Below are positions 15,985-58,610 of a DNA stretch of 64,000 nucleotides, one piece after another. The first letter of the stretch is position 1; each line of letters opens with the position of its first letter. The translations under genes were made by a program, and so were the position numbers. Below the pieces are notes generated by a model. It made no database searches and had not been told where the DNA came from. It saw only the letters and a list, made by a program, of their open reading frames with translations. Source of the stretch: Acidimicrobiia bacterium (GTDB lineage Bacteria > Acidobacteriota > Vicinamibacteria > Vicinamibacterales > CAVVIG01); contig VFZL01000001.1 of the NCBI GenBank assembly GCA_016871175.1, forward strand, positions 128,218 through 192,217. The letters run 5' to 3'.

Positions 15985-18264
15985 ATGCCGGCGTCTATCT
16001 CGCCTTTCGTGCCCCGCCCGTCGAGCGGTGCGCCGACGCGGCCCACGCCGGCGGAGCACCGTCCGCTGTGGGACAGCCCGCGGCGGCTGCTGGTCGGCAT
16101 CGCGCTGCTGGCCGGTGCGCTGGCGGGCATCCTGACGGTCGCGAGCCGTAGCGCCGCCTCACCCGACTTTCTCTCCGAGTTCGTCCTCTACGCGCTCTTG
16201 GCCGCCGACCTCACGATGCTGGTGGCGCTGCTGTTCGTGCTCGCGCGCCACATCGTCAAGCTGGTCGTCGAGAGGCGACGCGGGCGTCCGTTTGCGAGCC
16301 TCCGCGGCAAACTCGTGGCGCTCCTCCTTGGCATGACGCTGGCGCCTGCGGTGCTCGTCCTGGCCGTTGGCAGCGAGATCATCCGCACCAACATGGACCG
16401 GTGGTTCACGGCGCCGATGGACGAGGTCCTCGCTGCGGCCAACGAGCTCGTCGGCGACTATCGCCGCGAGCGGCAGGCGCAGGTGAATCGACATGCGGAG
16501 CGCGTCGCACGTGGGCTGGTCTCCGTGGACCTGACGGCTCAGGATCAGCGGGCGCTGCGCGACCGCCTACTATCGGACCTCGCGCTATCGCGTGACATTA
16601 CCCTCCAGGTGTACCGAGTCGCGCCGCTGTCTGGCAGCGAGTCAGAGCTCGTGCCCGTGTTCGACGTCGCGGGCAACACGCTGCCCGTCGGCTACTCCCG
16701 AGATACCGCCGACCGATTGGCGGCCAAGGCCCTCACCGGTGCCGATGAGCTGCGGGTCGAACAACGATTGGCCGATGACACGGCGCTGTTGCACGCGGCA
16801 GCGACCGTCAATGTTGAGGACGGTCGCCCGGTCGGCGTGGTCGTCGCCACCGACGTGGTCACCGGCGCGATCGTGGCTCGATCCCGCCAGATGACGTCGG
16901 CCTACGAGCAGTACAGCCAATTGCGAGTGCTCAAGCGTCCGCTGACTGGGGTGTATCTGTCGTTCTTCTTGATGGTCACGCTCATGATTCTCGTCGGCGC
17001 GCTGTGGATGGGGGTGTATCTGGCGAAACGCATCACGCGGCCAGTGCAGCTCCTGGCGGCGGCGGCTCGCGAGATCGGCGCTGGCCACCTGGATCAGCGG
17101 ATTTAACCCGAGAGCGACGACGAGCTCGGCGAGCTGGCGGAGGAGTTTAACGCGATGGCCGGCGAGCTGGCTCGCACGCGTCGCGACGTCACGCAGTCCA
17201 CCGAGGAGCTCAAGCGTCGCCACGGCGAGGTGGAGCGTCGGCGGCGCTACGTCGAGACGATCCTCGAGCGCATCGCAGCCGGAGTGGTGGCCTTCGGCGC
17301 TGCTGGCGCGGTGACCACCGTCAACGGATCCGCGGCCCGGCTGCTGAGCCTGGATCGCGACCTGGTCGGTCTGCCGGTGCGCGCCGTCTTCGCGCGACCG
17401 GACTTACAGCCGTTGGCGCGACTCGTCGCCGGTCCAGGCCGGCTCACGCCGGACCCGGCCTCTGCCGAAGTGACGGTCATGCGTGACGGCCTGGCGTTGC
17501 ATCTCACGGCGGCGGTGACCCCGCTCGTCGGCGAGCACGGTGCACCCGAAGGCAGCGTCCTCGTCCTGGACGATGTGACACCGCTCATTCGGACGCAGAA
17601 GGTCGCGGCGTGGCGAGAGGTTGCGCGCCGGCTCGCGCATGAGATCAAGAATCCGCTCACGCCGATCCAGCTGTCGGCGGAACGGTTGCGACGGACCTTC
17701 TCTGGTGGACCGGCCGGCGCGCAGGCCCTGGTGGACGAGTGCACGAGCACGATCGTTGGCGAAGTGGAGTCGCTCAAGGGGCTCGTGGACGAGTTCTCGC
17801 AATTTGCACGGATGCCGGCCCCGCGGGTCGTGCCGACCGACTTGCACCGGCTCATTCTGGATACGCTCGCGCTGTACGACGGACTGTTCACGGGCGTGCG
17901 CATCATGCCCGCGTTCGCCGCCGAGTTGCCGCTGGTGCGCCGCGATCCCGAGCAGATCCGGCGGGTGATCATCAATCTCGTGGACAATGCCGTCGAAGCC
18001 ATGGAGCGATCGGGCGACATCATCGTCGAAACCGGTCACGACCCGGCCGACAACGTGGTGCGCGTCGTCGTCGCGGATAACGGCCCAGGTATCTCAGCGG
18101 CCGAACGCGAGAAGCTCTTCCTGCCGTACTACTCGACCAAGCGGCGCGGCAGCGGGTTGGGCCTCGCCATCGTGCGCCGCATTATTGCCGAGCACGGCGG
18201 CAGCATCGACGTGAGCGACAACCAGCCGCGAGGCACCCGGTTTACCATCGAACTGCCGTGTTGA
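15985..18264 (+). pseudogene. NtrY-like sensor histidine kinase (TM-HAMP-PAS-HisKA-HATPase) interrupted by an in-frame TAA at 17104-17106
   Basis: Track ORFs 15985..17106 and 17155..18264 are in the same frame. Read-through gives ...RPVQLLAAAAREIGAGHLDQRI*PESDDELGELAEEFNAMAGEL..., a continuous HAMP domain. Downstream are the H-box RLAHEIKNPLTPI and the N/G boxes. Confidence 0.85.
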
Positions 18265-18277
18265 TGGGGCGTCACCC

Positions 18278-19663
18278 GTGAAGCCCGCCATCCTCATCGT
18301 CGACGATGAGCCGGGCGTGCGTTCGGCCCTCTCTGGCGTCTTACGGGACGAGTGGTACCGAGTCGAAGCGGTGCCGAGCGGCGAGGCGTGTCTCGAGCGC
18401 GTCACGCAGGGCGCGGTCGATCTCATCCTGCTCGATGTGTGGCTGCCGGGGCTAGACGGCTTGGCGACGCTCTCGCGCCTGAGAGAACGTCAGGTCGACG
18501 CCCAGGTGATTCTCATCTCGGGTCACGGCAATATCGAATCTGCCGTCCGCGCGATCAAGATGGGAGCCTTCGACTTCGTCGAGAAGCCGCTGTCCCTCGA
18601 CAAGACGATCCTCGTTGTCCGCAATGCGCTCCGGCAGCGGCGGCTTGAAGCCGAGAATCGCGCCCTGCGTGCCCGCGTCGACCGCACACCGGCGATGGTC
18701 GGGCAGAGCGAGGCGATGAGCCGCCTGCGCGAGTAGGTGGCGATGGCCGCGCCGACCAACGGTCGCGTGTTGATCTACGGCGAGGACGGCACTGGCAAGG
18801 AACTGGTCGCGCGCACCGTGCACGCGTTGAGCCATCGGCGGTCAGCGTCGTTCGTCGAGGTCAACTGCGCGGCTATTCCCGATGAGCTCATCGAAAGCGA
18901 ACTGTTCGGCCACGTCCGGGGTGCGTTCACCGGTGCCGTGTCCGACCGCCGGGGCAAGTTCGAGGTGGCCGACGGCGGCACGATCTTCCTCGACGAGATT
19001 GGTGACATGAGTCTGAAGACGCAGGCCAAGGTTCTTCGCGTGCTTCAGGAGCAGACGATGGAACCCGTCGGTGGCACGGCCCGGATGCGCGTCGATGCAC
19101 GCGTGCTGGCGGCGACCAACAAGGACCTGCCGACGGAGATCCGCCAGGGTCAGTTTCGCGAGGATCTGTACTTCCGCTTGAACGTGATCCCGATTTTCGT
19201 CCCGCCGCTCCGCGAACGTCCCGAGGACGTGCCACTCCTCGCCGACCACTTCATGGCCGAGTTCGCTCGCGAGTACGGTCGCCGTCCGAAACAGTTCGAT
19301 CCGGAAGCGCTCGGTGTGCTGCAGGAGTACGAGTGGCCCGGCAACGTGCGAGAGCTGCGCAGCGTGATCGAGCGGCTCATCATCATGGTGCCGGGCGACG
19401 TCATCCAGGCATCTGACCTCGGCTTCTTGGACCAGAGCGGGCTGCCGCGCCTGACGCTCGCGGAGCCATCGGGTCCGCGACCGACGTTGCATGAAGCGCG
19501 CGAGCGGTTCGAGCGAGATCTCATCCTCAGGACGTTGGCCGAGCAGCAAGGCAACATGTCACGCACGGCGGAGGTGCTGGGGGTCGAGCGGAGCAATCTG
19601 TATCGAAAGATGCGCACGTTTGGGATCGCGCCGTCGCGACGGCCCGAGGACGACAACGTCTAG
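18278..19663 (+). pseudogene. NtrC-family sigma54-dependent response regulator (REC-AAA+-Fis HTH) interrupted by an in-frame TAG at 18734-18736
   Basis: Track ORFs 18278..18736 and 18737..19663 are in the same frame. Read-through gives ...MVGQSEAMSRLRE*VAMAAPTNGRVLIYGEDGTGKE... GAFTGA is present, and the C-terminal HTH is MSRTAEVLGVERSNLYRKM. Confidence 0.85.
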
Positions 19664-20707: not shown

Positions 20708-21586
20708 ATGTCCGATCCTCTTCCGACCGATTCAAGTCCCCAGGGATCACAAGGGGGCCCGGCGTCCGAAGCGCTGCCCGGCGTGGGGCGTGATGCCAAG
20801 ATCGAGCAGTTGCTCCTGACCGGACTCGATCACTATTTCGACGGTCAATACGATCAGTCGATACACATCTGGACACGGGCCTTGTTTCTCGACCGCGGGC
20901 ATGCGCGGGCGCGCGCGTACATCGAGCGCGCGCGTGGGGCGCTCGCTGAGCAACAGCGTGAGTCCGAAGAGTTGTTGCAACGGGGTCTGGCTGCATTCGA
21001 CCGCGGCTCCAGTGCTGAAGCTCGCCGTTTGCTCGAAGCTGCGATCACCCGTGGCGCCCCGCGCGACGAGGCGCTCTCCGTGTTGGATCGCATTCAGCGG
21101 CTCGATCAGCCCGTGGGCGTGACCCAGGCGAGCAGCTCCGAGCCGTTGATCGATGGCGTGCCCACCCCGACGTCTCGTCAGCCCACGCAGCCGAGCTCGC
21201 GCGGGCGAATGTTGCTGGCCTGGGCCGGCATGGCGCTCGGCGTGCTCGTCCTTGGGCTGATTGCCTCAGGCGTGCTGTCGATTCAGGTGCGGTGGGGGCA
21301 GCCGCAGCCCATGCCAGGTGGCGTGCCAGTGGCGCAAGCTGACGATGCGCTGCCGCTTCCACGGCGAGGCGAGCTCGCACTGAGTCGCGCGCGGCTGCTG
21401 GCGCCGGCGGGTCGGTTGCGCGATGCCCTCGCGAGCCTCGATCAGATCGCCTTGACAGACGAGGAACGCGCCGCTGCCGATCGCCTCCGAGCGGACATTC
21501 AGCGGCACCTGATCGCCACCGGATCGGCCGCACCCACCGCGCCCGCCGTCCTCGACCCGGAGCCGTCGGTCGGGTCCACTCCATGA
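20708..21586 (+). CDS. Hypothetical membrane-anchored protein with TPR-like N-terminal helices
   Basis: 292 aa with good coding periodicity. One central TM helix (MLLAWAGMALGVLVLGLIASGVL). Its stop overlaps the next gene start (ATGA at 21583). Confidence 0.55.
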   Translation: MSDPLPTDSSPQGSQGGPASEALPGVGRDAKIEQLLLTGLDHYFDGQYDQSIHIWTRALFLDRGHARARAYIERARGALAEQQRESEELLQRGLAAFDRGSSAEARRLLEAAITRGAPRDEALSVLDRIQRLDQPVGVTQASSSEPLIDGVPTPTSRQPTQPSSRGRMLLAWAGMALGVLVLGLIASGVLSIQVRWGQPQPMPGGVPVAQADDALPLPRRGELALSRARLLAPAGRLRDALASLDQIALTDEERAAADRLRADIQRHLIATGSAAPTAPAVLDPEPSVGSTP

Positions 21587-22470
21587 AATGTCCCAAATGC
21601 GGGTACTTGGGCTTCGAGCAGGCCGAACGGTGCCGCAATTGCGGCTATGAATTCGCGCTCGCCGAGCGTCGCACCGATCGCGACGGCATCCTTCGCGACG
21701 ACACTGAACCGCGATCGGTGGACGATCTCGACCTCATTGATGGTGCGGCTTCAGCGCGACCGATACCACGCACGTCCACATCCAGGTCCCGAACCGTGGA
21801 CGCGCTCGACGAGATCGACGAACTTCCGCTCTTCACCGATGAACTCTCGCTGATCTCCCAGGCCTCGCCGCCACGTCCTCCGCTGTCGGTGCGGCGCGCC
21901 CCACCCGATGCGATGAGGCCAAGGGTCGACACGCCGACTGCACAAGACGCGCTCCAGGAACCAGAGATGGAGATGCCACTCGACGCGCTGATCAGTCCTG
22001 CGGTGCGCGCGCACGACCCGGAGTGGGTGCCGGCCGCGGCGGACGTCGCGGCGCCCGCCGGACTTGGCGCGCGGGCCGCGGCAGCGACGATTGATCTGGG
22101 TCTGCTCACCCTCATCGACCTCGCCGTGGTCTACCTGACTTTGCAGATCTGCGGGCTCACACCGCGCGAGATGGACCTGCTGCCGCTCCCGCCGCTTGTC
22201 GCGTTTCTCGTCGTGCAGAACGGCGGGTATTTGGTAGCGTTCACCGCCGGCGGGCAGACGATCGGCAAGATGGTGATGGGAGCTCGAGTAGTGGCCTCCG
22301 AGCCGGGCCAGGTGCTGGACCTCAGTCGCGCGCTGCAGCGCACGCTTGTCTGGGCGGTCATGGCGTTGCCGCTGGGCCTGGGACTGTTGTCGGCGCTCCT
22401 CACACCGGATCGCCGTGGCTTTCACGATCGGATCGCGGGGACCCGAGTCGTGCGCGCCGCGACGACCTAG
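21583..22470 (+). CDS. RDD-family membrane protein with N-terminal zinc ribbon
   Basis: MKCPKCGYLGFEQAERCRNCGYEF zinc ribbon. The C-terminal RDD-type TM domain ends ...LLTPDRRGFHDRIAGTRVV. Confidence 0.75.
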   Translation: MKCPKCGYLGFEQAERCRNCGYEFALAERRTDRDGILRDDTEPRSVDDLDLIDGAASARPIPRTSTSRSRTVDALDEIDELPLFTDELSLISQASPPRPPLSVRRAPPDAMRPRVDTPTAQDALQEPEMEMPLDALISPAVRAHDPEWVPAAADVAAPAGLGARAAAATIDLGLLTLIDLAVVYLTLQICGLTPREMDLLPLPPLVAFLVVQNGGYLVAFTAGGQTIGKMVMGARVVASEPGQVLDLSRALQRTLVWAVMALPLGLGLLSALLTPDRRGFHDRIAGTRVVRAATT

Positions 22471-22473
22471 GCC

Positions 22474-22944
22474 ATGGGGCGTGTGACGACGACTGTCGGG
22501 CTCGCCCTAGCCACAGGGTTGGGGGTCGGCTATGTTCCCTTCGCTCCCGGAACGTTTGGCTCGGCCGTCGGCCTCCTGCTCTGGATTGCGCTCCCGACTG
22601 CCCCGATGGTGCAGGCTGCCGTGATCGCGGCGGTCTTCGCTGTGGGCGTCTGGTCGGCCGGCGTGACCGAACGGCACTATCGCAGCACCGATCCGGGTGT
22701 GGTGGTCATCGACGAGGTGCTCGGCATGTTGATCACCCTCGCGATCCAGCCGGTGGGTTGGGCGGGCGCGGCGCTCGCCTTTTTGCTGTTTCGCGCCTTC
22801 GACGTGCTGAAGCCGTATCCCGCGAATCGGGTCGAGCGCATGCATGGCGGCTTCGGCATCATGGCCGACGACGGCGTGGCCGGTCTGTATGCGAACATAG
22901 TGCTCCGATTGGCGTTGCTGTGGGCGCCAGCGGGGCTCCTATAA
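22474..22944 (+). CDS. pgpA: Phosphatidylglycerophosphatase A
   Basis: 156 aa. GVGYVPFAPGTFGS...VVIDEVLGM...FRAFDVLKPYP motifs. Confidence 0.85.
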   Translation: MGRVTTTVGLALATGLGVGYVPFAPGTFGSAVGLLLWIALPTAPMVQAAVIAAVFAVGVWSAGVTERHYRSTDPGVVVIDEVLGMLITLAIQPVGWAGAALAFLLFRAFDVLKPYPANRVERMHGGFGIMADDGVAGLYANIVLRLALLWAPAGLL

Positions 22945-22991
22945 TCTCGACCCGACAGCGAGCGCCGCGCGCCTCTCCTCCAGAGACCTGC

Positions 22992-24245
22992 ATGAACGCC
23001 ATCATTCTTGCCGTTGGCAGCGAAATGCTCACGCCGTTCAAGACCGACACGAACTCTCTGGCGGTGACCGAGCGTTTGAACGCCCTTGGCTACGACGTAC
23101 GCACGAAGCTCGTTGTGGGGGACCGTCTCGACGACATTGTGAGCGCGCTCCGCTCGGTGATCGGACGCGTCGAGCTCGTGGTCTGCACTGGCGGTCTTGG
23201 CCCGACCGAAGACGACCTGACGCGGGACGCGCTGGCGCAAGTGCTGGACGTCGATTTGGAGGTCGATCCTGCGATTTTGGACGAGCTGCGCGCGCGCTTC
23301 GCGCGTCGCGGGATCGTGATGCGTGACAACAATGCGCGCCAAGCCCAGGTGCCGCGTGGGGTCGCGGTGGTGAAGAACGCGAACGGGACGGCGCCTGGCC
23401 TGCTGACCGTGCGCGCCGGCACCATCGTGGCGCTCTTGCCCGGCCCGCCGCGTGAGATGACGCCAATGCTCGAAGGGCTCATTCGCGACGGCCACATTCC
23501 CGCGCGCAGCGGGGGTCTGTTTCGACGCGTCCTCCGGATCACCGGGCGGCCGGAGTCGGAAGTCGACGCGATCGCGCATCCGGTGTACAGTCCGTGGCGC
23601 ACGCAGCCCATCCCGATCACCACCACTATTCTGGCCGTCTTGGGACAGATCGAGTTGCACTTGACGGCTGCCGCGCCCACTCGGGAGGCCGCCGACGCCG
23701 CGCTCACACCCGCGGTGGAGGCGCTGTGCGCGTCGCTCGGCTCATCGGTGTTCAGCGTGGACGGCCGCCCGCTCGAAGCCGTGGTGGGTGACCAGCTGCG
23801 ACAGGCTGGCTGGATGGCGAGTGTGGCGGAGTCGTGTACAGGCGGCCTCCTGGCCTCTCGCCTCACGGATGTCCCAGGCAGCTCGGAGTACTTCGATCGG
23901 GGCGTCGTGTGTTACAGCAACCAGGCCAAGGTCGACCTGCTCGGAGTGCCGCTGGCGCTCATCGAGGAGCAGGGTGCCGTCAGCGAACCGGTGGCCCTGG
24001 CGATGGCCTCTGGCATTCGGACGCGCGCGGGCACGGTGGTGGGCATCGGTATCACCGGCATCGCCGGGCCTGGCGGCGGCACGGATCACAAGCCGGTCGG
24101 AACGGTCGCCGTAGCGGTCGTCGCGGGCTCTCGGCAGTCGGTCCGCACCCTGCACTTGTTTGGATCCCGGGAGCAGATCAAATACCAAGCCGCCCAGGCG
24201 GCCATGAACATGCTGCGCCTCATGATGATCGACGCGAGGACCTGA
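22992..24245 (+). CDS. cinA: Competence/damage-inducible protein CinA (MoCF-like N-domain plus nicotinamide-nucleotide amidase C-domain)
   Basis: Start MNAIILAVGSEMLTPFKTDTNS at ATG 22992. C-terminal ...AESCTGGLLASRLTDVPGSS...GITGIAGPGGG. The 78 upstream codons of the track ORF overlap pgpA and are not supported. Confidence 0.9.
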   Translation: MNAIILAVGSEMLTPFKTDTNSLAVTERLNALGYDVRTKLVVGDRLDDIVSALRSVIGRVELVVCTGGLGPTEDDLTRDALAQVLDVDLEVDPAILDELRARFARRGIVMRDNNARQAQVPRGVAVVKNANGTAPGLLTVRAGTIVALLPGPPREMTPMLEGLIRDGHIPARSGGLFRRVLRITGRPESEVDAIAHPVYSPWRTQPIPITTTILAVLGQIELHLTAAAPTREAADAALTPAVEALCASLGSSVFSVDGRPLEAVVGDQLRQAGWMASVAESCTGGLLASRLTDVPGSSEYFDRGVVCYSNQAKVDLLGVPLALIEEQGAVSEPVALAMASGIRTRAGTVVGIGITGIAGPGGGTDHKPVGTVAVAVVAGSRQSVRTLHLFGSREQIKYQAAQAAMNMLRLMMIDART

Positions 24246-24251
24246 TTCAAG

Positions 24252-24848
24252 ATGCGGCTCTTCGTGGCCATCGAGCTCGATGAGACGGCGCGTGCAGGCG
24301 TTGTGTCATTGCAGCGGCGCGTGATCGGGTCCCTGAGAGACGACGCATCGGCCCTCAGGATGGTCCGACCGGAACAGTTGCACCTCACGCTGGTGTTTCT
24401 CGGCGAAGTGTCGGAGGATCGCGCGCGGACCCTCATGAACGCTCTCGACCCGCCGTTGGCCGGTGCGCCGTATACGCTGACGCTCGGAGGCCTCGGGATG
24501 TTCCCGCCACACGGTGCCCCCCGTGTGCTGTGGCTGGGTGTCGTCGAAGGGGCCGCCGAGACGATCGCGGCTCGCGCCGAAGTCCTGAGCCGATTGGTAC
24601 AGGCAGGGACACCGGCCGCCAATGGCGACGACAGCGACCCGCACGGCCGCGCGTTCACGCCCCATCTGGCCATGGGGCGGTGGCGAGACGCCAGACCGCG
24701 TCACCGCCGAGTCGTCGCCCAGGGCGAACCGTCAGGGGCGGTCGCAGCGTCGACGCGGGTGGACACTGTCACGCTGTTTTACAGGCGGCTGGGGAGCGCA
24801 GGTGCGTCCCACACCGCGCTCGTGCGCACGAGGCTCGGAGGCGCATGA
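24252..24848 (+). CDS. thpR: RNA 2',3'-cyclic phosphodiesterase (2H phosphoesterase, LigT/ThpR-like)
   Basis: MRLFVAIELDE... with first motif HLTLVFLG. The second motif reads PHLAMGRW where H-x-T/S-x is expected. Confidence 0.75.
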   Translation: MRLFVAIELDETARAGVVSLQRRVIGSLRDDASALRMVRPEQLHLTLVFLGEVSEDRARTLMNALDPPLAGAPYTLTLGGLGMFPPHGAPRVLWLGVVEGAAETIAARAEVLSRLVQAGTPAANGDDSDPHGRAFTPHLAMGRWRDARPRHRRVVAQGEPSGAVAASTRVDTVTLFYRRLGSAGASHTALVRTRLGGA

Positions 24849-25453: not shown

Positions 25454-25457
25454 GCCC

Positions 25458-35116: not shown

Positions 35117-37234
35117 GTGCCCTTCGATCGCGCCGCCACGTTGCGTTTCGCCGAGAAGCTCCTCCGGCAGGGGAAGCTCGATCAGGCAATCGCCGATTAC
35201 CTCCGCGTCGTCGAGGACGCCCCGAACGACTGAAATACCGCGAACATCCTTGGCGATCTCTTCGTTCGCGCCGGCAAACTCGACAAAGCCATCGAGCAGT
35301 TTGTCGCGGCCGCGGATTCGCTGAGCAACGAGGTCACCTTCGCAAAGGCGGCCGCCCTCTATCGCAAGATTCTGAAGCTGCGTCCCGAGCACGAGTACGC
35401 GCTGCTGCAGTGCGCCGAGATCGCGGCCACACAGGGTGTACTGGTCGACGCCCGCACCTATATGAAGGCGGTCGCGGATCGTCGTCAGGCGAGAGGGGAT
35501 CTGCGCGGCGTGGCACAGATCACGATTCGCCTCGCGTCGCTCGATTCGAATGATTTTGCGGCTCGGCTTGCCGGCGCGCGGGCACGGCTCGACGTCAAGG
35601 ATCTCAACGGAGCCGTTCGGGACTTCCGCGAGATCGCCGTCGAACTGCTGCATCAACACCGCGACGCCGAGGCCATCGAGGCATTGCGGGAAGCGATCAC
35701 GCTCGCGCCCGACGATCAGGAGGTCCGCCAGCAGTTGCTGGACGCCTTCGTGGCGGCCGGCGATCACGCCAGCGCCCGCGAGCACGCCCGCACCTCCGAG
35801 CAGCTACAGATGCTGGCCGCGCGCCTCGAGGAGCGCGGGGATCACGACGAAGCGATGGCCCTGCTGCGCGAGGCGCTCGCGATCGACCCGATGAACGTGC
35901 GGCTTCAAGCCCGGGTCACCGGCGTTGAACCCGTGCCCGGGCCTGACGTGCCTGCAACCCCCGAGCCAGCACCGCCCGAGGACGACGATCCGGCGCCGCT
36001 GCTCGTGCAGGCGGATCGATTCATCCGCGACGGTCACGTGACACATGGGCTGGCCGCCGTGCGCCTCGTGCTGGAGCGTGCGCCCGAGCTTCGCACGAAT
36101 GTGGCGCTCCTCGGGCTCTCATTCACCGAAACCGAACCCGACGTTGCGTTCGCCATCCTCGATCTCGCGGGCGATGCCGCCATCGCGGAAGGCGACTTCG
36201 CCATGGCGGCCGCGGGCATGTAGGAACTGGTCACGCGCGTGCCCGCGTACTTGCCGGCGCTCATGCGGCTGGTCGAGATCTGCGTCGATGGTGGCCTGGA
36301 GGCCACCATGCACGCGGCGCAGGCCCAACTCTGCGATGCCTACATCGAGGCCGGTGCAGCCGAGGAGGCTCGCTTCCTGGCCGAAGACCTCGTGGCGCGA
36401 GAGCCGTGGGAACGCGGGAACCTCGAACGGTTTCGCCGGGCGCTCGAGCTGCTGGGCGAGCCCGATCCGGACGCCGTCATCGCGCGTCGCCTGAGCGGGG
36501 AGTCGCCGTTCACGAGCACCGACGTGTCCGTGTCAGCCGTGCGCCAGGAGGTTCCGGCTCCCGAGCCAGGCCCGTCGCCGGCCGCACCCGTGTAGTGGGA
36601 AATCGACAACCACAACTTCCAGTTCGAGGCGACGACGTTCGATGCGCCCAGCGGGCCTGAACCCGCCGTCGAGAGTGGCGAGGAGCCTGACGAATCGGAG
36701 ATCGATCTCAGTGTCGAGTTAGACGACCTCCAGATGGGTAGCGCCGGTCTCGACCCGCTGGCGCGGTCCGCGCCCGAACGGGAACCGGTGGCCGCCGGTC
36801 CACTCGAGGCCGTGTTCTCCAGGCTCCGGGCCAGCGAATTGCGCCAAGCGGTCCTCGCCGGCGCCGAGGCTGCGCTTGCGGAGGCGATGGCGCACCAATC
36901 GGATGGCCGGATCGACGAGAGCATCCCGCTGCTGACCTTGGCGGCAGAGACGCCACAGTTGCGCTTTGGTGCGGCCTCGATGCTCGGTCGCATCTATCGG
37001 GAACGAGGGGACGCGCCGCGTGCCGCCGAATGGCTGGAGCGGGCCTCGCAGGCCCCACCCCCGACTCCCGACGAAGGGCGCCTTCTGTTGTACGATTTGG
37101 CCGACGTGCTGGAAGCGGCCGGAGAGCATACGCGAGCGCTGACGGTCTACATGGAGCTTCAGGCCGACGCCGACGCGTATCGCGACGTGGCTGATCGCGT
37201 ACGTCGGCTCGCCGTCGTCCAGATGCGAGGGTAA
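35117..37234 (+). pseudogene. Large TPR-repeat protein (~705 codons) with three in-frame stops: TGA 35231, TAG 36221, TAG 36593
   Basis: One continuous frame runs from GTG 35117 (10 nt after the rnhB stop) to TAA 37232-37234. TPR-like helices continue across every stop: ...VVEDAPND*NTANILGDLF..., ...AMAAAGM*ELVTRVPAYLPALMRLVEI..., ...SPAAPV*WEIDNHNFQFE... Confidence 0.75.
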
Positions 37235-49484: not shown

Positions 49485-50822
49485 TCAGCCGTTCGGCAAC
49501 CCGCCGAAGAGGAGGTAGGCGACGATCAACGTGACGCCGACGTTGAACGCCTGGCCACCGAGGAACGCGATGGCCGGCCGACCGCCGCCTGTGGTCACAA
49601 GGCGGCCCAGGTGCGTCTCGAGTCCAATCGACACAAACGCCATCGCGAAGAGCGCGGTGCGGAGCCCCGTCACCAGACTCTTGGTGCTGGCAACTGTCGG
49701 TCCCGCCACGAGGAACGAGAACGCGATCGACTCGAGGAGGAAGCCGAACACGAACTTGGGGAAGCGCTCCCAGATGACCGCGAGGCTCGTGCTCGGTCGC
49801 TCCGGGGACTTGTTCCGGATCGCCCACCAGACCGTCAGTGCAAAGGCCACCAGGCCGATGAGCGCGTTCTGCGAGAGCTTGACCACTACGGCCGCGTTAC
49901 GTCCAGCGTCACCGAGCATCTCACCCGCGGCAACCACGGCTGCGCTCGTGTCGAGCGTGCCTCCCAGCCACGCCCCGGCCACGACGGGGGACATGTCGGT
50001 GGCGCGAGCGATCCACGGCATCAGCACCATCATCGGCATCGCGACGAGCAGCACGAGCGACGTGACGTACGACAGCTTCTTGCGATCGCCCTGGATGGCT
50101 CCGCACGCCGCAATGGCGGCTGACACGCCGCAGATGGACACCGCGCTGGCCAACATGGTGCTCAGCTCGTCGTCGACCCGCATTCGACGACACAGCCAGA
50201 AGCAGAAGGTCCAGACGGTCAAGACCACGACCAGGGCCTGGAGGATGCCGGGCAGGCCGGCCTGCACGATCTCATTGAAGAGGATCGTCGCGCCGAGCAC
50301 GACCAACCCGGTCTTGATGTAGAACTCGGTGCGGACCGCCTCGCGAAGCCACTCAGGGACTCCGCTGGTGTGGTTAACGATCAATCCGATCGCGAGCGCA
50401 AAGATCACGTACTCCAGCCCCCACGCAGCGGCCGTCGTGTAGCCGGCCAGCACTTGTGCCAGCACGGCGAGCGCGTAAACGACCAGCAGTCCAGGGAGGA
50501 AGGCGACCATGCGTACGCGAAGCACGGACGCGCCCACGAGGACGGGTCCCAGGACCAGCAGTGCGATCTGCGCGATCCGCGTGAGATTGGGGAGGGCGGT
50601 CAGACCGCTGAGCGGTGCCGTCTCGCTGCCCCAGGCGAACCGCGGCATGGCCGGCCTGAGGCCGACGAGCACGAGGGCGATCATGGCTCCCCCGATCAGG
50701 ACGGCGAGCCAGTCTTCACCGATGAGCGGCGGACGCTCGGCCTCGAGAGTGCGGGGTTCGGCGGACGCATCGGTTTGAGCGGGCGCACGGCCCGCGAGCA
50801 CGGTCGCACTCGGCTGACTCAT
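49485..50822 (-). CDS. Polytopic membrane transporter, YeiH/UPF0324 (putative sulfate exporter) family
   Basis: 445 aa with ~11-12 TM helices. The family assignment comes from overall pattern recognition only. Confidence 0.65.
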   Translation of the reverse strand: MSQPSATVLAGRAPAQTDASAEPRTLEAERPPLIGEDWLAVLIGGAMIALVLVGLRPAMPRFAWGSETAPLSGLTALPNLTRIAQIALLVLGPVLVGASVLRVRMVAFLPGLLVVYALAVLAQVLAGYTTAAAWGLEYVIFALAIGLIVNHTSGVPEWLREAVRTEFYIKTGLVVLGATILFNEIVQAGLPGILQALVVVLTVWTFCFWLCRRMRVDDELSTMLASAVSICGVSAAIAACGAIQGDRKKLSYVTSLVLLVAMPMMVLMPWIARATDMSPVVAGAWLGGTLDTSAAVVAAGEMLGDAGRNAAVVVKLSQNALIGLVAFALTVWWAIRNKSPERPSTSLAVIWERFPKFVFGFLLESIAFSFLVAGPTVASTKSLVTGLRTALFAMAFVSIGLETHLGRLVTTGGGRPAIAFLGGQAFNVGVTLIVAYLLFGGLPNG

Positions 50823-50871
50823 GACTCGACAGTCTGGCCGGCCGAGGCGTCGCTGTCAACGCTCCTGATCT

Positions 50872-52542
50872 ATGCTGCTCGACATGCCGTTGCCGTCCTA
50901 CGTCTCTGGGGCATCTCATCTTCCGCTGCTGGGGCGCACGATTGGCGCGGAGCTCGATCGGGTCGCGCGGGCGACGCCCGACGCCTTGGCGGTGGTCAGC
51001 CGGCATCAGAGCCTCCGTCTGAGCTACGGAGCGCTGCACGAAGCGGCCGAGCGCTGTGCCCGCGCGCTGCTGGCGCTCGGCGTTGGCAAGGGCGACCGTG
51101 TCGGGATCTGGGCCGGGAATTGCGCGGAGTGGCTCATCGTGCAATATGCCACTGCGCGGGTCGGTGCCATCCTCGTGAACGTCAACCCTGCCTACCGGCG
51201 GCACGAGCTCGAATATGCGCTGTCGCACAGCGAGGTATCGCTCTTGATCGCGGCGCGTGCGTTCCGGCGGACCGACTACATCGAGATGATCCTGAGTGTG
51301 CGCCCCGGGCTCCCGCGCCTCGAGCGGGTCATCCTGCTCGGCGACGGTGAGTCCGGGATGCTCGCCTGGAGTGATTTCGTCGAGCGAGGCACGGCGGTGT
51401 CACCGGCTACGCTTGCGCAACGCGAGTCGATCCTCGACTTCGACGATCCGATCAACATCCAATACACCTCCGGAACGACAGGCTTTCCGAAGGGCGCGAC
51501 TCTGGCGCATCACAGCATCCTCAATAACGGTTTCTTCGTCGGGGAACGATGCGGATACACCGACGCCGACCGCATCTGCGTGCCCGTGCCGCTGTATCAC
51601 TGCTTCGGCATGGTGATGGGCAATCTCGGCGCGCTGACGCACGGTGCGGCGGTCGTGTACCCCTCGGCTGCGTTCGATCCGCAGGCGACGCTCGAAGCGA
51701 TCCAAGCCGAACGCTGTACGTCGCTGTATGGCGTTCCGACGATGTTCATCGAGCAGCTTGAGCATCCTGATTTCGCGAAGTATGACCTCAAGAGCCTGCG
51801 GACGGGCATCATGGCGGGTTCGCCATGTCCGGTGGAGGTGATGAAGCAGGTCATCGAGCGCATGCACCTGAAAGAGTTGACGATTTGCTACGGCATGACC
51901 GAGACGTCACCAGTGTCGTTCCAGAGCGCCAGAGCCGACGACTTGGAGCACCGCACCGCGACGGTCGGCGCGGTGCATCCGCATGTGGAATGCAAGATTG
52001 TCGATCCCGAAACCGGTCACACCGTGCCTCGAGGGACGCCGGGCGAGCTGTTGAGCCGCGGCTATCTCGTGATGTCGAGGTACTGGAGCGACGCCGAAGC
52101 GACCACGCGCGCGATCGATTCGGCGCGGTGGATGCACACCGGTGACCTAGCCGTCATGCGGGACGACGGGTACGTGAACATCATCGGTCGCATCAAGGAC
52201 ATGGTCATCCGCGGTGGCGAAAACATCTTCCCGAGGGAAGTCGAGGAATTCCTGTACCGGCACCCCAAGATTCAAGACGTCCAAGTCATCGGTGTCCCGG
52301 ACGTCAAGTACGGCGAGGAGCTGTGCGCCTGGATCAAGTTGCGCGAAGGGATGACCGCCACGGCCGAAGAAATCCAGGCGTTCTGCCGAGGCCAGATCGC
52401 GACCTTCAAGATCCCGCGGTACATCCGACTGACGGACAGTTTCCCGATGACGGTCACAGGGAAGGTGCGGAAGGTCGACATGCGTGCAGTGTCAATCGAG
52501 GAACTCGGGCTCCAGGACGCGGCGTCCACCCGAACGGCGTGA
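50872..52542 (+). CDS. AMP-binding acyl-CoA synthetase / fatty-acid-CoA ligase
   Basis: 556 aa. AMP-binding motif [20 protein letters not shown], ...YGMTETSP..., [29 protein letters not shown] and a C-terminal TGKVRK. Confidence 0.88.
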
Positions 52543-52606
52543 ACCTCGGGAAGCCGCCTGCCGTCGCCGGCCAGAGTGCGCCACGTGGCGAGGCGATCGA
52601 GGAACG

Positions 52607-53380
52607 CTAGGCACCGGAATTGATGAAATCCGCGAGTGCCGTCTGGTATGCCGCCCATTCGTGGATATCGTTGTGGCCCGCGTCTGGCACCGTCACCGAT
52701 CGCACGCTGCGACCGAAGGCTCTCGCGAGCTGCTCCGCATGGGAGGGCGGAATCACCTCGTCTTGGCCCGCCGCGATGACGAGTGTCGGCGCCTTGACGT
52801 CGGCCGCAAACCGATCGGAGCGAAATCGGTCCCGTGCCAACAGCCCGACCGGGAACCATGGCAACGCGCGCCGGCCGACCGCCACGAGACTGTTGAAGGG
52901 TGTGATCAGCACGAGCTTCGTCCCGGGACGGCTCGCGGCCAGCTGCACCGCGACGCCGCTGCCGAGGCTGCGGCCGACCACGACGATGTCGTCGCGGTCG
53001 CCGGCCACGCTGTCGAACACGACCTTCGCATCGGCAACGAGCGCAGCTTCCGAGGGTGTGCCGCTGCTGCCACCGTAACCCCGATAGCGAACGAACACGA
53101 GCGTGCGATGAGGACACAGCGCTGCGAGAGCGCCGATGGACTGCGCCACGTCTTCCGCATTGCCGCCAAAATACAGGAGCGCTCCCCTGCCCGGCCGCCG
53201 GAGGACGATGTTCTGGAGCACGGCGCCGTCGACCGTCACGGGTTCGATCGCGCCAACGACAGGCCGCGACGGTGGCACCGGAAAATAGACCATCGAACGC
53301 TGCGTGACATAGATCCAGGCGCAGAGTGCGACGTACGCCGCAACCAGTACCAACGGCAGCGCCAGCATCGAGTGCTTCAA
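52607..53380 (-). CDS. Alpha/beta hydrolase with an N-terminal membrane anchor
   Basis: 257 aa. Nucleophile elbow VVVGRSLGSGVA (GxSxG), and a late ...D..I...H pattern (AGHNDIH). Confidence 0.75.
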   Translation of the reverse strand: MKHSMLALPLVLVAAYVALCAWIYVTQRSMVYFPVPPSRPVVGAIEPVTVDGAVLQNIVLRRPGRGALLYFGGNAEDVAQSIGALAALCPHRTLVFVRYRGYGGSSGTPSEAALVADAKVVFDSVAGDRDDIVVVGRSLGSGVAVQLAASRPGTKLVLITPFNSLVAVGRRALPWFPVGLLARDRFRSDRFAADVKAPTLVIAAGQDEVIPPSHAEQLARAFGRSVRSVTVPDAGHNDIHEWAAYQTALADFINSGA

Positions 53381-53530
53381 CGTTTGGTTGCGATCATGAT
53401 ACCGCGAGGCTGGCGCGGTCCTGCCCCTAGCAACAGCGTCGACTGGGCGCGCAGCAGGACCCCGGCGGCCGTTGCGTGGCGGGCACGGCTGCGCCGAGGC
53501 GCGTGGCTCGGTGATGCGCCCTAGGTGCCG

Positions 53531-54919
53531 TCACGCGAGTGGCTCCGAGATTGGCACCGGAGGCACCGGCAGCGCGTCCCTCCCTGCCGACAGTCTGATG
53601 CGAAACTCCCGCCTCAACAGCCACAGCCCGAGCGCCATCTGCAGCACCACCGAGAGCACCGTCAGGTACCACACCCACGTCAGCTGAACGCCCGGCCAAC
53701 TCGAAAGGACGTACGCCGGAATCGCGACCACCACGATGCGCACGAACGAGGTCGCGAGGGAGGGCATGGTGTGACCCATGGCCTGGAACATGCTCGCCGT
53801 CACGAACACGAGGCCGGACGCAAGATAGCTCCAGGAGACAATCCGCAGGTACTGCTCGCCGACGGCGATGACCGCCAGATCGTCCGAGAAGAAGCGTACC
53901 AAGGCCTCGGCGAACGACTGACAGATGACGAAGAGGAGAAACATCCCCGCCACAGCGAGGCCAGCGGCGATGCGAAAGGTCGCACGGACGCGGTCGGGCC
54001 GACGTGCGCCGAAATTCTGCCCCGCGACAGGCGCGACGGCGAACCCCAGCGAGACGATCGGCATGAATCCCGCCTGGCCGACACGTTGACCGATACCGAA
54101 GCCCGCCTGCGCGGCCGCGCCGAACGGTTGACTCACGACATACACAACGCCCAGATATACGGCGATCAGCGCGAACTCCACACCCGCCGGGAGACCGATT
54201 CCCAGCAACCGCTTCCACGTGGCGAGATCGGGCACCATTTCCGCGCGCCGAACCCGCAGAAACGATCCGGGACGCTCGGCGTACACATACAACCACGCGA
54301 CGCCGACGGCGACCGCGACGAGTGTCGAGACGGCAGCGCCCGCGACGCCCATGGCGTTACCAGTGCCCCAGCCGAAGATGAGAATCGGTGCGAGCGTCAT
54401 GTTCAGCACCACCGTTGCGCTCCCGACGACCATCCCGGGCTTGAAGTCGCCCATCCCGCGAAGTGCCGCCGAGACAGCGATCAACGCGAACTGCAGCGCC
54501 ATCGCGGGCACGAACCACCACAAGAACTGTTGCGCGAGGCCGGCCGTGTATTCGTCCGCGCTGAACGTGCGGGCATAGAACGGGGTGAGGGCGATGCCGA
54601 TGATCAGAAATACGCCGCCCGCCACGCCCGACAGCGTTTGTGCCTGATTGAAGACACGTCGTGCCGCGTCGGGATCCCGTCGGCCCGCTGCATGCGCCAC
54701 GAGTGTGGTCGTCCCCACGCCGAGCATCTGCGTCAGCGCGAGTACGACGAAGGTCAGGTTCCCGGCGACGCCCACTGCGGCGACGGCCTCCTTGCCCAGG
54801 CGGCCCATCCAGTAGAGGTCTGCCAGGAAGTACATGGTCTGGAAGGCCATTGTGAAGAGCATGAAGCCCGCGGTAGAGAAGAGGTGCCGCGTAAGGGAAC
54901 CGGAGGTGAGGTTGTTCAT
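53531..54919 (-). CDS. MATE family efflux transporter
   Basis: Start at ATG 54919 (MNNLTSGSLTRHLFSTAGFML...). 12 TM helices. ...YWMGRLGKEAVAAVGVAGNL...GVGTTTLVAHAAGRRDPDAA. The 68 upstream codons of the track ORF would overlap the divergent gene. Confidence 0.88.
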   Translation of the reverse strand: MNNLTSGSLTRHLFSTAGFMLFTMAFQTMYFLADLYWMGRLGKEAVAAVGVAGNLTFVVLALTQMLGVGTTTLVAHAAGRRDPDAARRVFNQAQTLSGVAGGVFLIIGIALTPFYARTFSADEYTAGLAQQFLWWFVPAMALQFALIAVSAALRGMGDFKPGMVVGSATVVLNMTLAPILIFGWGTGNAMGVAGAAVSTLVAVAVGVAWLYVYAERPGSFLRVRRAEMVPDLATWKRLLGIGLPAGVEFALIAVYLGVVYVVSQPFGAAAQAGFGIGQRVGQAGFMPIVSLGFAVAPVAGQNFGARRPDRVRATFRIAAGLAVAGMFLLFVICQSFAEALVRFFSDDLAVIAVGEQYLRIVSWSYLASGLVFVTASMFQAMGHTMPSLATSFVRIVVVAIPAYVLSSWPGVQLTWVWYLTVLSVVLQMALGLWLLRREFRIRLSAGRDALPVPPVPISEPLA

Positions 54920-54956
54920 CACTACGTCATTGATTGTACGACGTGGGCGCGACCCG

Positions 54957-57340
54957 ATGAAGCGCCTTTCGCGGCGCGCCCTGTCGGTCGTCCTCGCCAC
55001 TGCGGTCATCGCCTCGGCGTCGGTCGACATTTCTGTGCAACGCGAGGATTGGACCGAGCCCGCCACGCGCGAGTGGCCCTTGGCCGGCGGCGACTGGCGC
55101 GGCACGCGATACTCCGCCCTCACTCAGGTCGACGCCACGACGGTGACGCAACTCCGAGGCGCGTGGGTCACCGAGTTGCCCGGTCGCGAATCCCAAAACA
55201 AGGTGACACCCATCGTCCGCGACGGGTTGATGTACGTCGTCACCGGCACGAGTGTGCACGCTCTCGACGCGCGAACCGGCGCTCGCGTGTGGAGCCAGCC
55301 CACCAACACGCAGATGAATCGTGGCATCGCCGTCGGCGACGGCTTGGTGTTCGTGGGCCAGTTCGACGCCTCGGTGGTCGCGCTGGATTGGAGAACCGGT
55401 CAGCGCGTCTGGACGTACGCGGAGAAGATGGACGCCGGCCAGCGAATCACCGGTCCGCCCGTCACGCGGACGGTCTCGTCATCATCGGCATCTCTGGCGG
55501 GGACTGGTTCGTCCGCTGCCGTGTCATGGCGCTCGACGCGAAGACCGGTCGGGAGCTCTGGAGCTTCTACACGGTGCCCGCGCCGGGCGAGCCGGGATCA
55601 GAGACGTGGCCCCCCAACAACGACGTGTGGAAGTACGGCGGTGGAGCTGTGTGGACGTTCCCGGTGGTGGATCGTGACCTGGGCCTCGTCTACGTGCAGA
55701 CGGGCAACGCCGTGCCGCCCTGGGGCGGTGAGCTCCGCGCCGGCGACAATCTCTACACCTGCTCCGTGCTGGCGCTCGACCTGAAGACCGGGAAGCTCCG
55801 CTGGTACAAACAGCTCCTTCACCATGACATTTGGGAGGCGGACGTCTCGACGCCGCTCGTCCTGTACGACACGTCAATCGGCGGCAGGACGAGGATGGTC
55901 CTGGCTGCGATGCGCACTGACGGCTTCCTGTTCCTCATGGATCGCGCGACCGGTGAGTTCCTGCAGCGCGTCGAAGAACGGGCGGTGAAACAAGACGCGC
56001 AGCTGAAGACCTCGCGGACGCAGCCATTTCCGGTCGGTGCCGATCGGGTCGGTCCCTAGTGCGTGCCGCGGGACACGGTGCTCGAAGGGTTTCTACTCGG
56101 ATGCCACTACGACCCGATCCTGCCCGACGTCCCGAACCTCGCCGTGCCGTACATGAACATGCGGTTCTCGCCGATGTCGTACAGCCCGCAGACTGGACAT
56201 TTGTATGGGACCGGGTGCGTCTATCCATTCTGGATTCGCCGGCCCGATCGGCCGTGGCTTGGCTTCGGGCCAGTGGTCGGTCATATCCCTGGACAGTAGG
56301 CCTACGGGAGTCTGGTCGCGCTCGATGGTCGAACCGGCAAGCGCGTGTGGGAACATCGGCTTCCGTATCCGGGCTGCGGGGGCAGCGGGACCCTCGCGAC
56401 GGCGAGCGGATTGCTGTTTCACGGCGATCCCGGTGGCCACTTCCAGGCATACGACGCGCGGACCGGTCGGCTCGTCTGGCAGTTCCAGACCGGATCGCTT
56501 GGACCGTGGTCGTCGGCGCTGGGACCGGGTACTGGACCGGCGATCGCCTACCAGGTCAACGGCGAGCAGCACCTGGTCTTCGCGATCGACCGCGCGATCT
56601 GGGCGTTCAAGATTGGCGGCACCATCGGACCGATGGCGGTGCCCGAGGCGTATCCAGCTGAGGAGCCCTTTCGCGGCGCAGTCCGTGAGACGACCGAGAT
56701 CGCGCTGTCGGCACTTGTCTCCGAAGACAATCCGAACACGGGACGTCGTCACGAGTGGGTCTCAGAGCACGCGGTGAATCCCACGCGGGCGGCGGTCGCG
56801 CCGGGCGCGACGGTGACGTGGCGCAACACTGGCACGCTCACACACACGATCGTCGCGCAGGATCGCTCGTGGGCGACCGGGCCAATCGGACCTGGTGCTT
56901 CGGCGTCGGTCACGATGGCGAAGCGCGGGTCGGTGGCCTAAATCTGCCAAGATCACCCGTGGGTCATCGCCGAGCTCACCATCGGCGCACGCACGTCGCA
57001 GGGCGTGTACACACGGACGCACGCCGCGCGCGGCGCAGCGGAGTATCAGCGTGCGTGTGCGTCGTGTCATCTGGCTGACCTCACGGGGCAGCACACCTCG
57101 CCGGCGCTGGCTGGCGAGACATTCTTGCGGCTGTACGACGGCAGGCCGGTCGCGGCGCTGTTCGAGCGCACTCGTTCGACGATGTCGCAAGGGGCGGTCG
57201 GATCGCTGAGCGCACAGGCGTACGCGGACGTTGTCGCGTTCCTGCTTGAAGCGAATCGATATCCGGCTGGCGACCGCGAGCTGAGCCCGGACGTCCGACA
57301 GCTCCAGCAGGTCACGATCAGCCGACCGTCCGCGCCGTGA
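54957..57340 (+). pseudogene. Secreted PQQ beta-propeller dehydrogenase fused to cupredoxin-like and cytochrome c domains; disrupted by 1 frameshift and 3 in-frame stops
   Basis: Signal peptide MKRLSRRALSVVLATAVIASA in frame 0 runs to ~55465. Homology continues one base back in frame 2 (...ADGLVIIGISGGDWFVRCRVMALDAKTGRELW...). That frame carries in-frame TAG at 56057, TAG at 56297 and TAA at 56939, with propeller motifs continuing across them (GSLVALDGRTGKRVWEH; AYDARTGRLVWQF). Next comes a cupredoxin-like block (GATVTWRNTGTLTHTIVA...*ICQDHPW), then a heme site CASCH. Confidence 0.8.
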
Positions 57341-57381
57341 GGGGTCTCGAGAAGCCGGTGTTTTCTGACATGAGGAGTGAG

Positions 57382-58610
57382 ATGCGCACACGTATGCCTG
57401 GCCTCATTCGACTTGGGCGACTACACGTCGTCGCCCTGATGGCGCTGCTCCTGACGGCAGTCGGTTTCTGGCAGGGTGACCCGCTGGCCCAGGAAGGGCC
57501 GATCAATTACCAGGTCGATCCGGGGTGGCCGAAACCGTTGCCCGCGCCGAAGGATGCGTCCGGCCAGACCCACCAGTGGATCACCGGCGACGTGGGCGCG
57601 AACTGTGTCGACGCGCGCGATCACATGGTCATCGTCACACGCGGGTTTCAGCGGGCTGGCGTGAGCACGACGGATGGGACGCAGTCCGTGGCGTCGCCAC
57701 CTGTGCTCCAGTTCGACGCGGATGGCACCCTGGTCCGCAGCTGGGGTGATCCGACGCTCGGACCCACGGGCGTCGCGACCGCCCTTCCCAATGCGATCCA
57801 TGTCTGCTTCGTGGACTACGAGGACCACGTGTGGATTGGCGGCAACGGCGACGGTGTCCTGCAAAAGTACTCGAAGGAGGGCACGTTGCTCCTGCAAATC
57901 GGCGAGAAGGGCAACTGCGACGGCGTCGAGCCCGCGCCGCCGCCACCGGCAGGGAAGTCGTGGTTCGGCCGGCCCAATCGCTTCTACCCGACGTGCGCGG
58001 AGCCGGGCACGAACACGAGCCAGACGAAACTCAATGGCGTTGCCGACATGTTCATCGATCCGGAGCCGGATCCGGTGACCGGTCAACGCGGGTCGGTCTA
58101 CGTCGCTGACGGCTACGGCAACAACCGCGTGGCGGTGTTCGACGCAAGAGGACGGTATCTCCGGCAGTGGGGCACCGCAGGGGACGGTCCCGGGCAGTAC
58201 AGCGTCTATGGCGGCGGCCACCCGCACTGCGTCGTCATCGCGAAGGACGGCCTCGTGTACACGTGCGACCGCGAGAAGGCGAGAATTCACGTGACGGACA
58301 AGCTCGGACAGTTGCAGCAGACCTTCCGCATCGATCCGCCCGATCAGAAGGCCGCCATCTGGCGCGCGACGGACATCGATTTCTCACGCGACCCGGCGCA
58401 GGCCTACATGTTCGTGATGGACCTCGGAAGTGGGAGGGTGCGGATCCTCGAGCGTAAGACTGGCCGCGAAGTGGGGAGCTTGGTCGTCCTGGCGCGATGG
58501 CTGGTGAGTTCCGCTTCGCGCACACGATTGCGGTGGACTCGAGGGAGAACGTCTACGTGGCCGAAACCTCCTCCGGTCGACGCATTCAGAAGTTCGCGCG
58601 GATCAAGTAG
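57382..58610 (+). pseudogene. Secreted NHL-repeat beta-propeller protein with a single-base frameshift near 58480-58483
   Basis: ATG 57382 has GAGGAG 4 nt upstream. Signal peptide MRTRMPGLIRLGRLHVVALMALLL. After ...TGREVGSL the NHL repeat continues one base back: GRPGAMAGEFRFAHTIAVDSRENVYVAETSSGRRIQKFARIK*, with the stop at 58608-58610. The annotated frame instead gives a low-complexity Arg/Ser tail to 58740. Confidence 0.7.

Follow-up and report, generated by a model that had tools for sequence, protein, structure and literature searches.

Why should ten coding lesions, eight in-frame stop codons and two single-nucleotide deletions, be gathered in just five genes of a stretch of bacterial DNA? 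The stretch, called the window below, consists of the 64,000 nucleotides at positions 128,218 to 192,217 of contig VFZL01000001.1 in GenBank assembly GCA_016871175.1, which carries the name "Acidimicrobiia bacterium". The affected genes encode an NtrY-like sensor histidine kinase, a sigma54-dependent response regulator, a tetratricopeptide repeat (TPR) protein, a pyrroloquinoline quinone (PQQ)-dependent dehydrogenase joined to a cytochrome c, and an NHL-repeat protein. We consider it highly probable (about 0.9) that they are genuine, recent pseudogenes carried by a natural population of a Lake Tanganyika bacterium, an uncultured member of Vicinamibacterales (Acidobacteriota). A first-pass annotation of this DNA had ranked recent pseudogenisation first, and the reading is supported by lesions that are real and shared between strains, by orthologues that are intact, and by neutral evolution of the broken genes.

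Five genes carry ten lesions

The genes and their lesions are the following, all on the plus strand.

15985..18264, +, predicted pseudogene of an NtrY-like sensor histidine kinase, 759 codons; TAA at 17104-17106, inside HAMP
18278..19663, +, predicted pseudogene of a sigma54-dependent response regulator, 461 codons; TAG at 18734-18736
35117..37234, +, predicted pseudogene of a TPR protein, 705 codons, downstream of rnhB, with multiple TPR families in Pfam; TGA at 35231-35233, TAG at 36221-36223 and TAG at 36593-36595
54957..57340, +, predicted pseudogene of a PQQ-dependent dehydrogenase with C-terminal cytochrome c, 794 codons; deletion at 55463/55464, TAG at 56057-56059, TAG at 56297-56299 and TAA at 56939-56941
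57382..58610, +, NHL-repeat beta-propeller gene; deletion at 58481/58482, with an out-of-frame tail extending to 58740

The eight stops start exactly where the first-pass annotation had placed them, and the two frameshifts that it put near 55465 and 58482 are single-nucleotide deletions relative to intact orthologues, TAC becoming -AC at 55463/55464 and TTC becoming TT- at 58481/58482. Neither deletion sits in a homopolymer longer than 3, and no larger deletions are seen so far in the five genes. Six-frame translation shows each frame going on through every stop with recognisable protein sequence. When translations bridging the lesions were scanned against Pfam, single matches ran across them, as had been claimed: HAMP (346-395) covers the stop at residue 374 of the kinase, Sigma54_activat (140-306) covers the stop at residue 153 of the regulator, and the propeller match (40-362) of the repaired PQQ protein covers the frameshift.

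Together the five genes make up 9,393 bp, or 14.7% of the window (the earlier figure was roughly 15%) and 15.5% of its coding sequence; they are about 9% of its 56 genes. If ten lesions were placed at random by gene length, the probability of hitting no more than five of the 56 genes would be 2.5e-4, which agrees with the earlier argument that random error should not cluster in this way. The remaining genes, screened by Pfam coverage and public gene calls, have full-length Pfam matches and contiguous JGI and Logan calls of normal length, so within these tests no lesion was detected in them, again as first proposed. (A GC3 filter and a codon log-odds gene finder were set aside as too crude for detecting lesions.) An eleventh lesion was suspected in the overlapping minus-strand open reading frames (ORFs) 8840-9982 and 9874-10734, and was rejected when these turned out to be two intact tandem paralogues.

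What the genes encoded

The repaired kinase has the Pfam domains NtrY_N, HAMP, PAS, HisKA and HATPase_c, although the NtrY_N match, at 27.3 bits for a cut-off of 23.2, is weak and PAS stays under its cut-off. Its stop splits HAMP and so parts the sensor and transmembrane half from the catalytic half; GenBank annotates it as two coding sequences (CDSs), MBM3769808.1 and MBM3769809.1. The regulator has Response_reg, Sigma54_activat, AAA_lid_14 and HTH_8, and its TAG at 18734 stands eleven codons ahead of the Walker A motif. By domain set, the ancestral pair would be an NtrY/NtrX-type two-component system.

The genome collection has relatives of the kinase in at least 551 stretches; almost all of the best 80 loci come from metagenome-assembled genomes (MAGs) of Vicinamibacterales/Acidobacteriota. 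The TPR gene is conserved at full length, with more than 100 full-length orthologue clusters, and MAGs of the same lineage are overwhelmingly represented among its best relatives. The label "accessory", given earlier to all five genes, therefore fails for the kinase, the regulator and the TPR gene, which are conserved across Vicinamibacterales; judged by these homologues, the pair and the TPR gene are best described as lineage-core genes that were lost.

The repaired PQQ protein matches PF01011 at 254 bits and Cytochrom_C at 22.4 bits, which passes the cut-off, and has the motif CASCH; Cytochrome_CBB3 (25.1 bits) is just short of its cut-off. These features would make the ancestral gene a PQQ-dependent (quinohemoprotein-like) dehydrogenase, in which a propeller is combined with a c-type cytochrome bearing CxxCH. 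It had been described as a PQQ-cupredoxin-cytochrome c fusion; the PQQ and cytochrome c parts stand, and a cupredoxin match in Pfam was found in homologues only, not in the window copy. The order PQQ gene then NHL gene is kept in two related contigs, L005 and L178, and in one JGI contig.

Two further observations bear on the PQQ gene. In the public gene calls a MatE gene of 524 aa, which begins at 55105 on the minus strand, shares about 150 bp (54957-55105) with the 5' end of the PQQ gene; the MatE orthologue has 462 aa, which suggests that the MatE start is over-extended. A second PQQ dehydrogenase gene, intact, lies at 6412-8595.

The same lesions occur in independent assemblies and in a second strain

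Lesions of this kind might be present in no real cell, having arisen through sequencing, assembly or polishing, or through a chimera of a mixed population (the latter was one of the fallbacks of the first-pass annotation). The source is indeed a metagenome bin, from a sample with at least two strains. Public data sets made by other routes were compared with the window, whose gene fragments equal the GenBank proteins MBM3769808-MBM3769853 (locus tags FJW27_00785 to FJW27_00905), encoded on a MAG contig of 256,320 bp.

Contigs identical to the window are present in JGI/IMG metagenome 3300020193 (Lake Tanganyika), one of 24 metagenomes from that lake (PMC8245535). JGI contig L002 has 100% identity to window positions 21350-38459, and contig L001, compared with 47063-62542, shows three differences (47189, 53689 and 53788), none at a lesion site. 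The A allele at 53689 matches the strain in ERR14789947 and ERR14789951, an observation indicating that the source sample contains two or more strains. Over 51595-64000 (12.4 kb), the Logan assembly of SRR7990526 has 100% identity to the window.

Another strain, with 99.8-99.96% identity to the window, is present in runs ERR14789947, ERR14789950, ERR14789951 and ERR14822406. It carries eight of the ten lesions: the kinase TAA (seen in ERR14789950 and ERR14789947), the regulator TAG (ERR14789947, ERR14789950 and ERR14789951), all three TPR stops (ERR14789950 and ERR14789951), and the deletion and two TAGs of the PQQ gene. Position 56939-56941 reads TAC (Tyr) in ERR14789947, ERR14789951 and ERR14822406, the covered PQQ lesions being otherwise shared. 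The NHL gene is in frame, at 409 aa, in 99.9% identical contigs of ERR14789951 and ERR14789947, and its deletion is for that reason the youngest lesion. Because the other strain has TAC at 56939 and an intact NHL gene, decay has been stepwise, with eight older shared lesions and two (56939 and 58482) private to the window strain.

Since independent assemblies and the other strain's runs hold the same lesions, the lesions are reproducible in the assembled contigs compared, and are not assembly or polishing artefacts or a chimeric consensus. They come from three pipelines (those of the GenBank MAG, of JGI and of Logan) and from five or more further runs; the three between-assembly differences miss the lesion sites; substitution errors that gave stops in just five genes would have P of about 2.5e-4; and the deletions lie outside any homopolymer longer than 3. 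An artefactual origin, the mixed-population consensus included, is thus extremely improbable. (A separate scan of metagenome contigs with the repaired PQQ protein found only distant homologues, at 74% identity or less, in a set from which Tanganyika contigs are absent; an exact look-up of the putative GroEL sequence gave no match.)

Each lesion replaces a sense codon

Ancestral states were read from alignments of 80 kinase, 77 regulator, 14 TPR, 3-6 PQQ and at least 5 NHL orthologues, with the intact syntenic contig L005 (about 83% nucleotide identity) as reference for the PQQ and NHL genes.

17104, GAA (E) to TAA; GAA or GAG in 66 of 80 orthologues, and GAA in the nearest, L011
18734, CAG (Q) to TAG; CAG or CAA in 77 of 77 orthologues
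35231, TGG (W) to TGA; W invariant in 14 of 14 orthologues
36221, CAG (Q) to TAG; Q invariant in 14 of 14 orthologues
36593, CAG (Q) to TAG; Q in the closest relatives
56057, GAG to TAG, against L005
56297, AAG to TAG, against L005
56939, TAC to TAA, against L005
55464, T of TAC lost, against L005
58482, C of TTC lost, against L005

This alignment, a check that the first-pass annotation had proposed, gave a plain sense codon at every site, encoding E, Q, W, Q, Q, E, K and Y where the window has stops and reading TAC and TTC where it has deletions. The frame of the orthologues runs unbroken through all ten sites, and none in the aligned sets is naturally split at a lesion point. Of the eight stops, four arose by G:C to A:T transition, three by G:C to T:A transversion and one by an A:T to T:A change, so that seven of eight go from GC to AT. 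With so mixed a spectrum, one cause for all of them, be it a deaminase or damage by oxidation, can be rejected. The earlier count of five TAG among eight stops was correct, and no special meaning attaches to it. TAG makes up 59-62% of one-step nonsense mutations in the five genes under three mutation models, because CAG, GAG and AAG are preferred codons; five of eight is the mutational expectation and carries no signal.

The ancestral codons bear directly on the idea that full-length proteins are still made, by stop suppression or reassignment (including selenocysteine- or pyrrolysine-type decoding) together with programmed -1 frameshifting. In its favor, frames and domains run through every lesion, and five of the eight stops are TAG. 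Known precedents include genetic codes 4 and 25, in which TGA is read as Trp or Gly, and the insertion of pyrrolysine at TAG and selenocysteine at TGA; as in such systems, the stops here lie within conserved domains, and the one TGA is at an invariant Trp. In the window, however, TAG stands for Q, Q, Q, E and K, TAA for E and Y, and TGA for W, and since the replaced residues are so heterogeneous (five amino acids) no single decoding rule restores the proteins. All three codons also serve as real terminators, ending the window's 56 genes 37 (TGA), 11 (TAG) and 8 (TAA) times, as the first-pass annotation had argued in rejecting a change of genetic code. Stop-codon reassignment calls for a terminator gone unused and one consistent amino acid, and neither is found here. 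No tRNA and no Rfam family at gathering score occurs within the 64-kb window, the TAG share equals its mutational expectation, frameshifts occur alongside the stops, and the genes evolve at a neutral rate with mostly non-synonymous changes (see below).

Programmed frameshifting is known from prfB, dnaX and IS3-family transposases, and the two frameshifted genes resemble these in needing a single-base change of frame for a full protein. Unlike them, the shift sites (CCCGTC/ACGCGG and GGGAGCTT/GGTCG, the slash marking the shift) have no slippery heptamer at CCC-GTC-ACG or AGC-TTG-GTC, and the shift is not conserved: orthologues carry one extra T or C, and even a strain 99.9% identical to the window keeps its NHL gene in frame. 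Neither hallmark of a programmed ribosomal frameshift is therefore present. The suppressor or readthrough fallback of the first-pass annotation is contradicted by the mixture of replaced residues and by neutral evolution, and we see hardly any chance that recoding accounts for the lesions.

Selection on the broken genes

The window was compared with contigs of the other strain over 39.8 kb, leaving an intergenic 4-bp insertion/deletion (indel) out of the pseudogene count. (This indel, GCGC at 14332-14335, is relative to the ERR14789950 strain and lies between the purC and LPG-synthase genes.) Intact genes show 13 synonymous and 11 non-synonymous differences, with proportions of differing sites of 0.174% at synonymous positions (pS) and 0.053% at non-synonymous ones (pN). 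The five broken genes show 3 synonymous, 11 non-synonymous, 1 nonsense and 1 frameshift difference, that is, 16 differences in 9,393 bp, or 0.17%. Because this change at all sites equals the synonymous rate of the intact genes, the broken genes, taken as a pool, evolve neutrally between the strains. The ratio of non-synonymous plus nonsense to synonymous differences is 12:3 in broken and 11:13 in intact genes (Fisher p = 0.049).

A longer time span is covered by a three-taxon codon test (window, L005 and L178). For the PQQ gene, non-synonymous/synonymous (N/S) counts are 52/94 on the window branch, while the branches leading to the two orthologues have 29/99 and 38/116 (pooled 67/215; p = 0.012), so that N/S is raised on the window branch only. 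The NHL gene shows no such excess in the same test, as would be expected of a gene whose frameshift is strain-specific. Relative-rate tests on amino acids give no large excess for the kinase, regulator, TPR or NHL protein.

Among unbroken genes, the highest non-synonymous load is in an intact PolX-like gene at 39331-41052 (minus strand), with three non-synonymous single-nucleotide polymorphisms (SNPs) between strains (39567, 39613 and 40286) and one synonymous (39421). This may indicate relaxed constraint.

Age of the inactivation

Pairwise dN/dS, another check proposed at the outset, was calculated against relatives at about 83% nucleotide identity. Values are low for all three genes tested and within or near the ranges of their neighbours.

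PQQ gene, 0.098 (neighbours 0.063-0.086)
NHL gene, 0.060 (neighbours 0.063-0.086)
TPR gene against L179, 0.169 (neighbours 0.016-0.232)

Because dN/dS to distant orthologues is still low, we infer that inactivation was recent, probably roughly 1-1.5% neutral divergence ago. The excess of about 23 non-synonymous changes on the PQQ branch would correspond to about 1.4% neutral divergence, which is about eight times the divergence between the strains and far under the synonymous distance to the closest relatives with intact genes (dS 0.55-0.8). With a nonsense share of 2.8-3.6% per mutation, about 4-5 stops would be expected over 9.4 kb by this age, and eight are observed. The count is on the high side, and would fit within Poisson error if the first hit in each of three units (defined below) is set aside as ascertainment.

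How the genes came to be lost

The events may be pictured as follows. Three units, namely the NtrY-like kinase with its sigma54 activator, the TPR protein, and the PQQ dehydrogenase/cytochrome c with the NHL protein, would have become unneeded or been knocked out, and would then have drifted neutrally while point mutations (seven of eight from GC to AT) and two single-nucleotide deletions piled up. Purifying selection would have kept essential neighbours clean by removing such hits. Both this order and its proposed cause, relaxed selection rather than selected loss, are the likeliest course of events as we see it. Lesions are still being added.

Several results weigh against this picture. The kinase and regulator, taken alone, show no relative-rate excess beyond control genes, and their strain SNPs are sparse (2 N : 2 S in the kinase; 1 N in the regulator), so that relaxed selection is not demonstrated for either alone. 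Under pure neutrality, moreover, eight stops imply about 140-200 missense changes (18-25 missense per nonsense); the measurable missense excess on the lineage is in the tens only, and the count fits only at the low edge, once the first hit in each of the three units is allowed for as ascertainment.

The first of these points also counts toward the idea that some fragments of the kinase and regulator still function, as split genes. A soluble PAS-HisKA-HATPase kinase could be made from ATG 17155, which has GGAGGAG about 10 nt upstream, and a receiver-less, possibly constitutive sigma54 activator could restart at the GTG right after TAG 18734. The TAG-GTG adjacency and the upstream purine run are plain in the sequence, the C-terminal regulator fragment is without a strain SNP, and PGAP annotates the fragments as ordinary CDSs; removal of the receiver is known to activate some NtrC-family proteins, such as DctD and NtrC1. 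Against this, the cut in HAMP severs the sensor and transmembrane part from the catalytic part, and the GTG and purine run are ancestral codons (V; A-E-E-F) rather than new signals. The strain variants in the fragments (S to W in the regulator; A to T and G to D in the kinase) are non-synonymous and too few to show constraint. The idea is also inapplicable to the TPR and PQQ genes, with 3-4 lesions each. We rate split-gene function as very unlikely.

A weightier alternative, still clearly less probable than simple relaxation, is that loss was selected for, by adaptive loss or streamlining in a pelagic freshwater niche, rather than just tolerated. Three units conserved across the order have gone in a short span, nonsense is somewhat over-represented relative to the missense excess, and an intact second PQQ dehydrogenase remains; streamlined planktonic bacteria are as a rule poor in two-component systems. 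Selection, however, explains at most the first hit in each unit, and the other seven lesions need neutral time. From the missense excess about 1.4 PQQ stops are expected against 3 observed (P about 0.17), a difference compatible with neutrality, and other lineages showed no parallel knock-outs of independent origin. In a broader and more speculative form, which we hold rather doubtful, the regulator/kinase pair, the TPR gene and the PQQ module would have been shed nearly together in an ongoing, possibly selected streamlining as the lineage moved into the Tanganyika water column. If that were true, the lesion polymorphism between strains would be a natural time series of gene loss. In a rarer variant, a receiver-less activator or soluble kinase fragment may have been co-opted and be active still.

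A link through the sigma54 regulon, in which targets decay once their regulator is lost, was considered and rejected: sites resembling TGGCAC-N5-TTGC number 17 in the window against 21.6 expected, hence no enrichment, and the window scan found no sigma54-like site upstream of the PQQ or TPR genes. As a separate observation, TGGCACAGTGGTTGCC at 63639-63654 (minus strand) is a near-consensus sigma54-type -24/-12 element with 1 mismatch, about 37 nt upstream of a PEGA/CarboxypepD_reg gene at 62739-63602.

Taxonomy and other features of the window

The NCBI label "Acidimicrobiia bacterium" conflicts with the evidence of the kinase, regulator and TPR genes, whose closest relatives are almost all from Vicinamibacterales/Acidobacteriota MAGs. 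By these homologies the label or the binning appears to be wrong, and the organism to be a member of Vicinamibacterales (Acidobacteriota).

The two adjacent paralogues at 8840-10734 (minus strand; about 380 and 286 aa) are without a Pfam match and share the motifs GDSRG-WEG-TLVVD and EDPKVFTRPW. A small ORF with the look of a secreted protein comes next, at 8393-8830 (minus strand), and all three lie directly upstream of the intact PQQ dehydrogenase; paralogues and ORF may form an uncharacterised periplasmic module.

Gene content differs locally among the related contigs. L005 (from ERR13655510) has, between its AMP-binding gene and its MatE gene, a nucleotidyltransferase/HEPN pair at 3247-4001; at the corresponding place (52607-53368) an alpha/beta-hydrolase gene is found in the window. 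L179 has an Xre/RES toxin-antitoxin pair after its thiE-HEAT genes. No FMN or TPP riboswitch was found at Rfam gathering score in the 64 kb, including 26500-30500 and 37234-37311, despite a ribD-ribE-ribBA operon and thiS-thiE genes.

Relation to known gene decay, and significance

Pseudofinder is a tool for finding disrupted bacterial pseudogenes. Such disrupted (unitary) pseudogenes, of free-living as well as host-restricted bacteria, have reportedly been catalogued by Liu et al. in 2004, Lerat and Ochman in 2005, and Kuo and Ochman in 2010. The genes described here share their features: stops and single-nucleotide indels relative to intact orthologues, several hits per gene, neutral evolution afterwards, a GC-to-AT bias, and lesions polymorphic among close strains. 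There is no difference in kind; the setting here is an uncultured free-living lake bacterium, with about 9% of window genes affected.

Mass pseudogenisation during reductive evolution is known from Mycobacterium leprae, Salmonella Typhi and Shigella. As in those genomes, regulatory and periplasmic or peripheral genes decay stepwise here while the core stays intact. Unlike them, this is an environmental planktonic or sediment-type organism, neither pathogen nor symbiont; there is no expansion of insertion-sequence elements within the window, and the view is one of 64 kb rather than of a genome-wide wave. The kind of decay is thus known, and the instance is new.

GenBank lists the fragments as ten ordinary CDSs ("HAMP domain-containing protein", "PAS domain S-box protein", "cytochrome c", "hypothetical protein") in place of what are probably five pseudogenes. 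If they are pseudogenes, metabolic or regulatory inferences drawn from this MAG should exclude this sigma54 two-component system and this PQQ dehydrogenase. Clustered lesions in a MAG can be validated, as here, by comparing independent public assemblies, without recourse to reads. For the organism itself, the five genes would show, on a small scale and clearly, how genes of a free-living, uncultured bacterium decay neutrally step by step.

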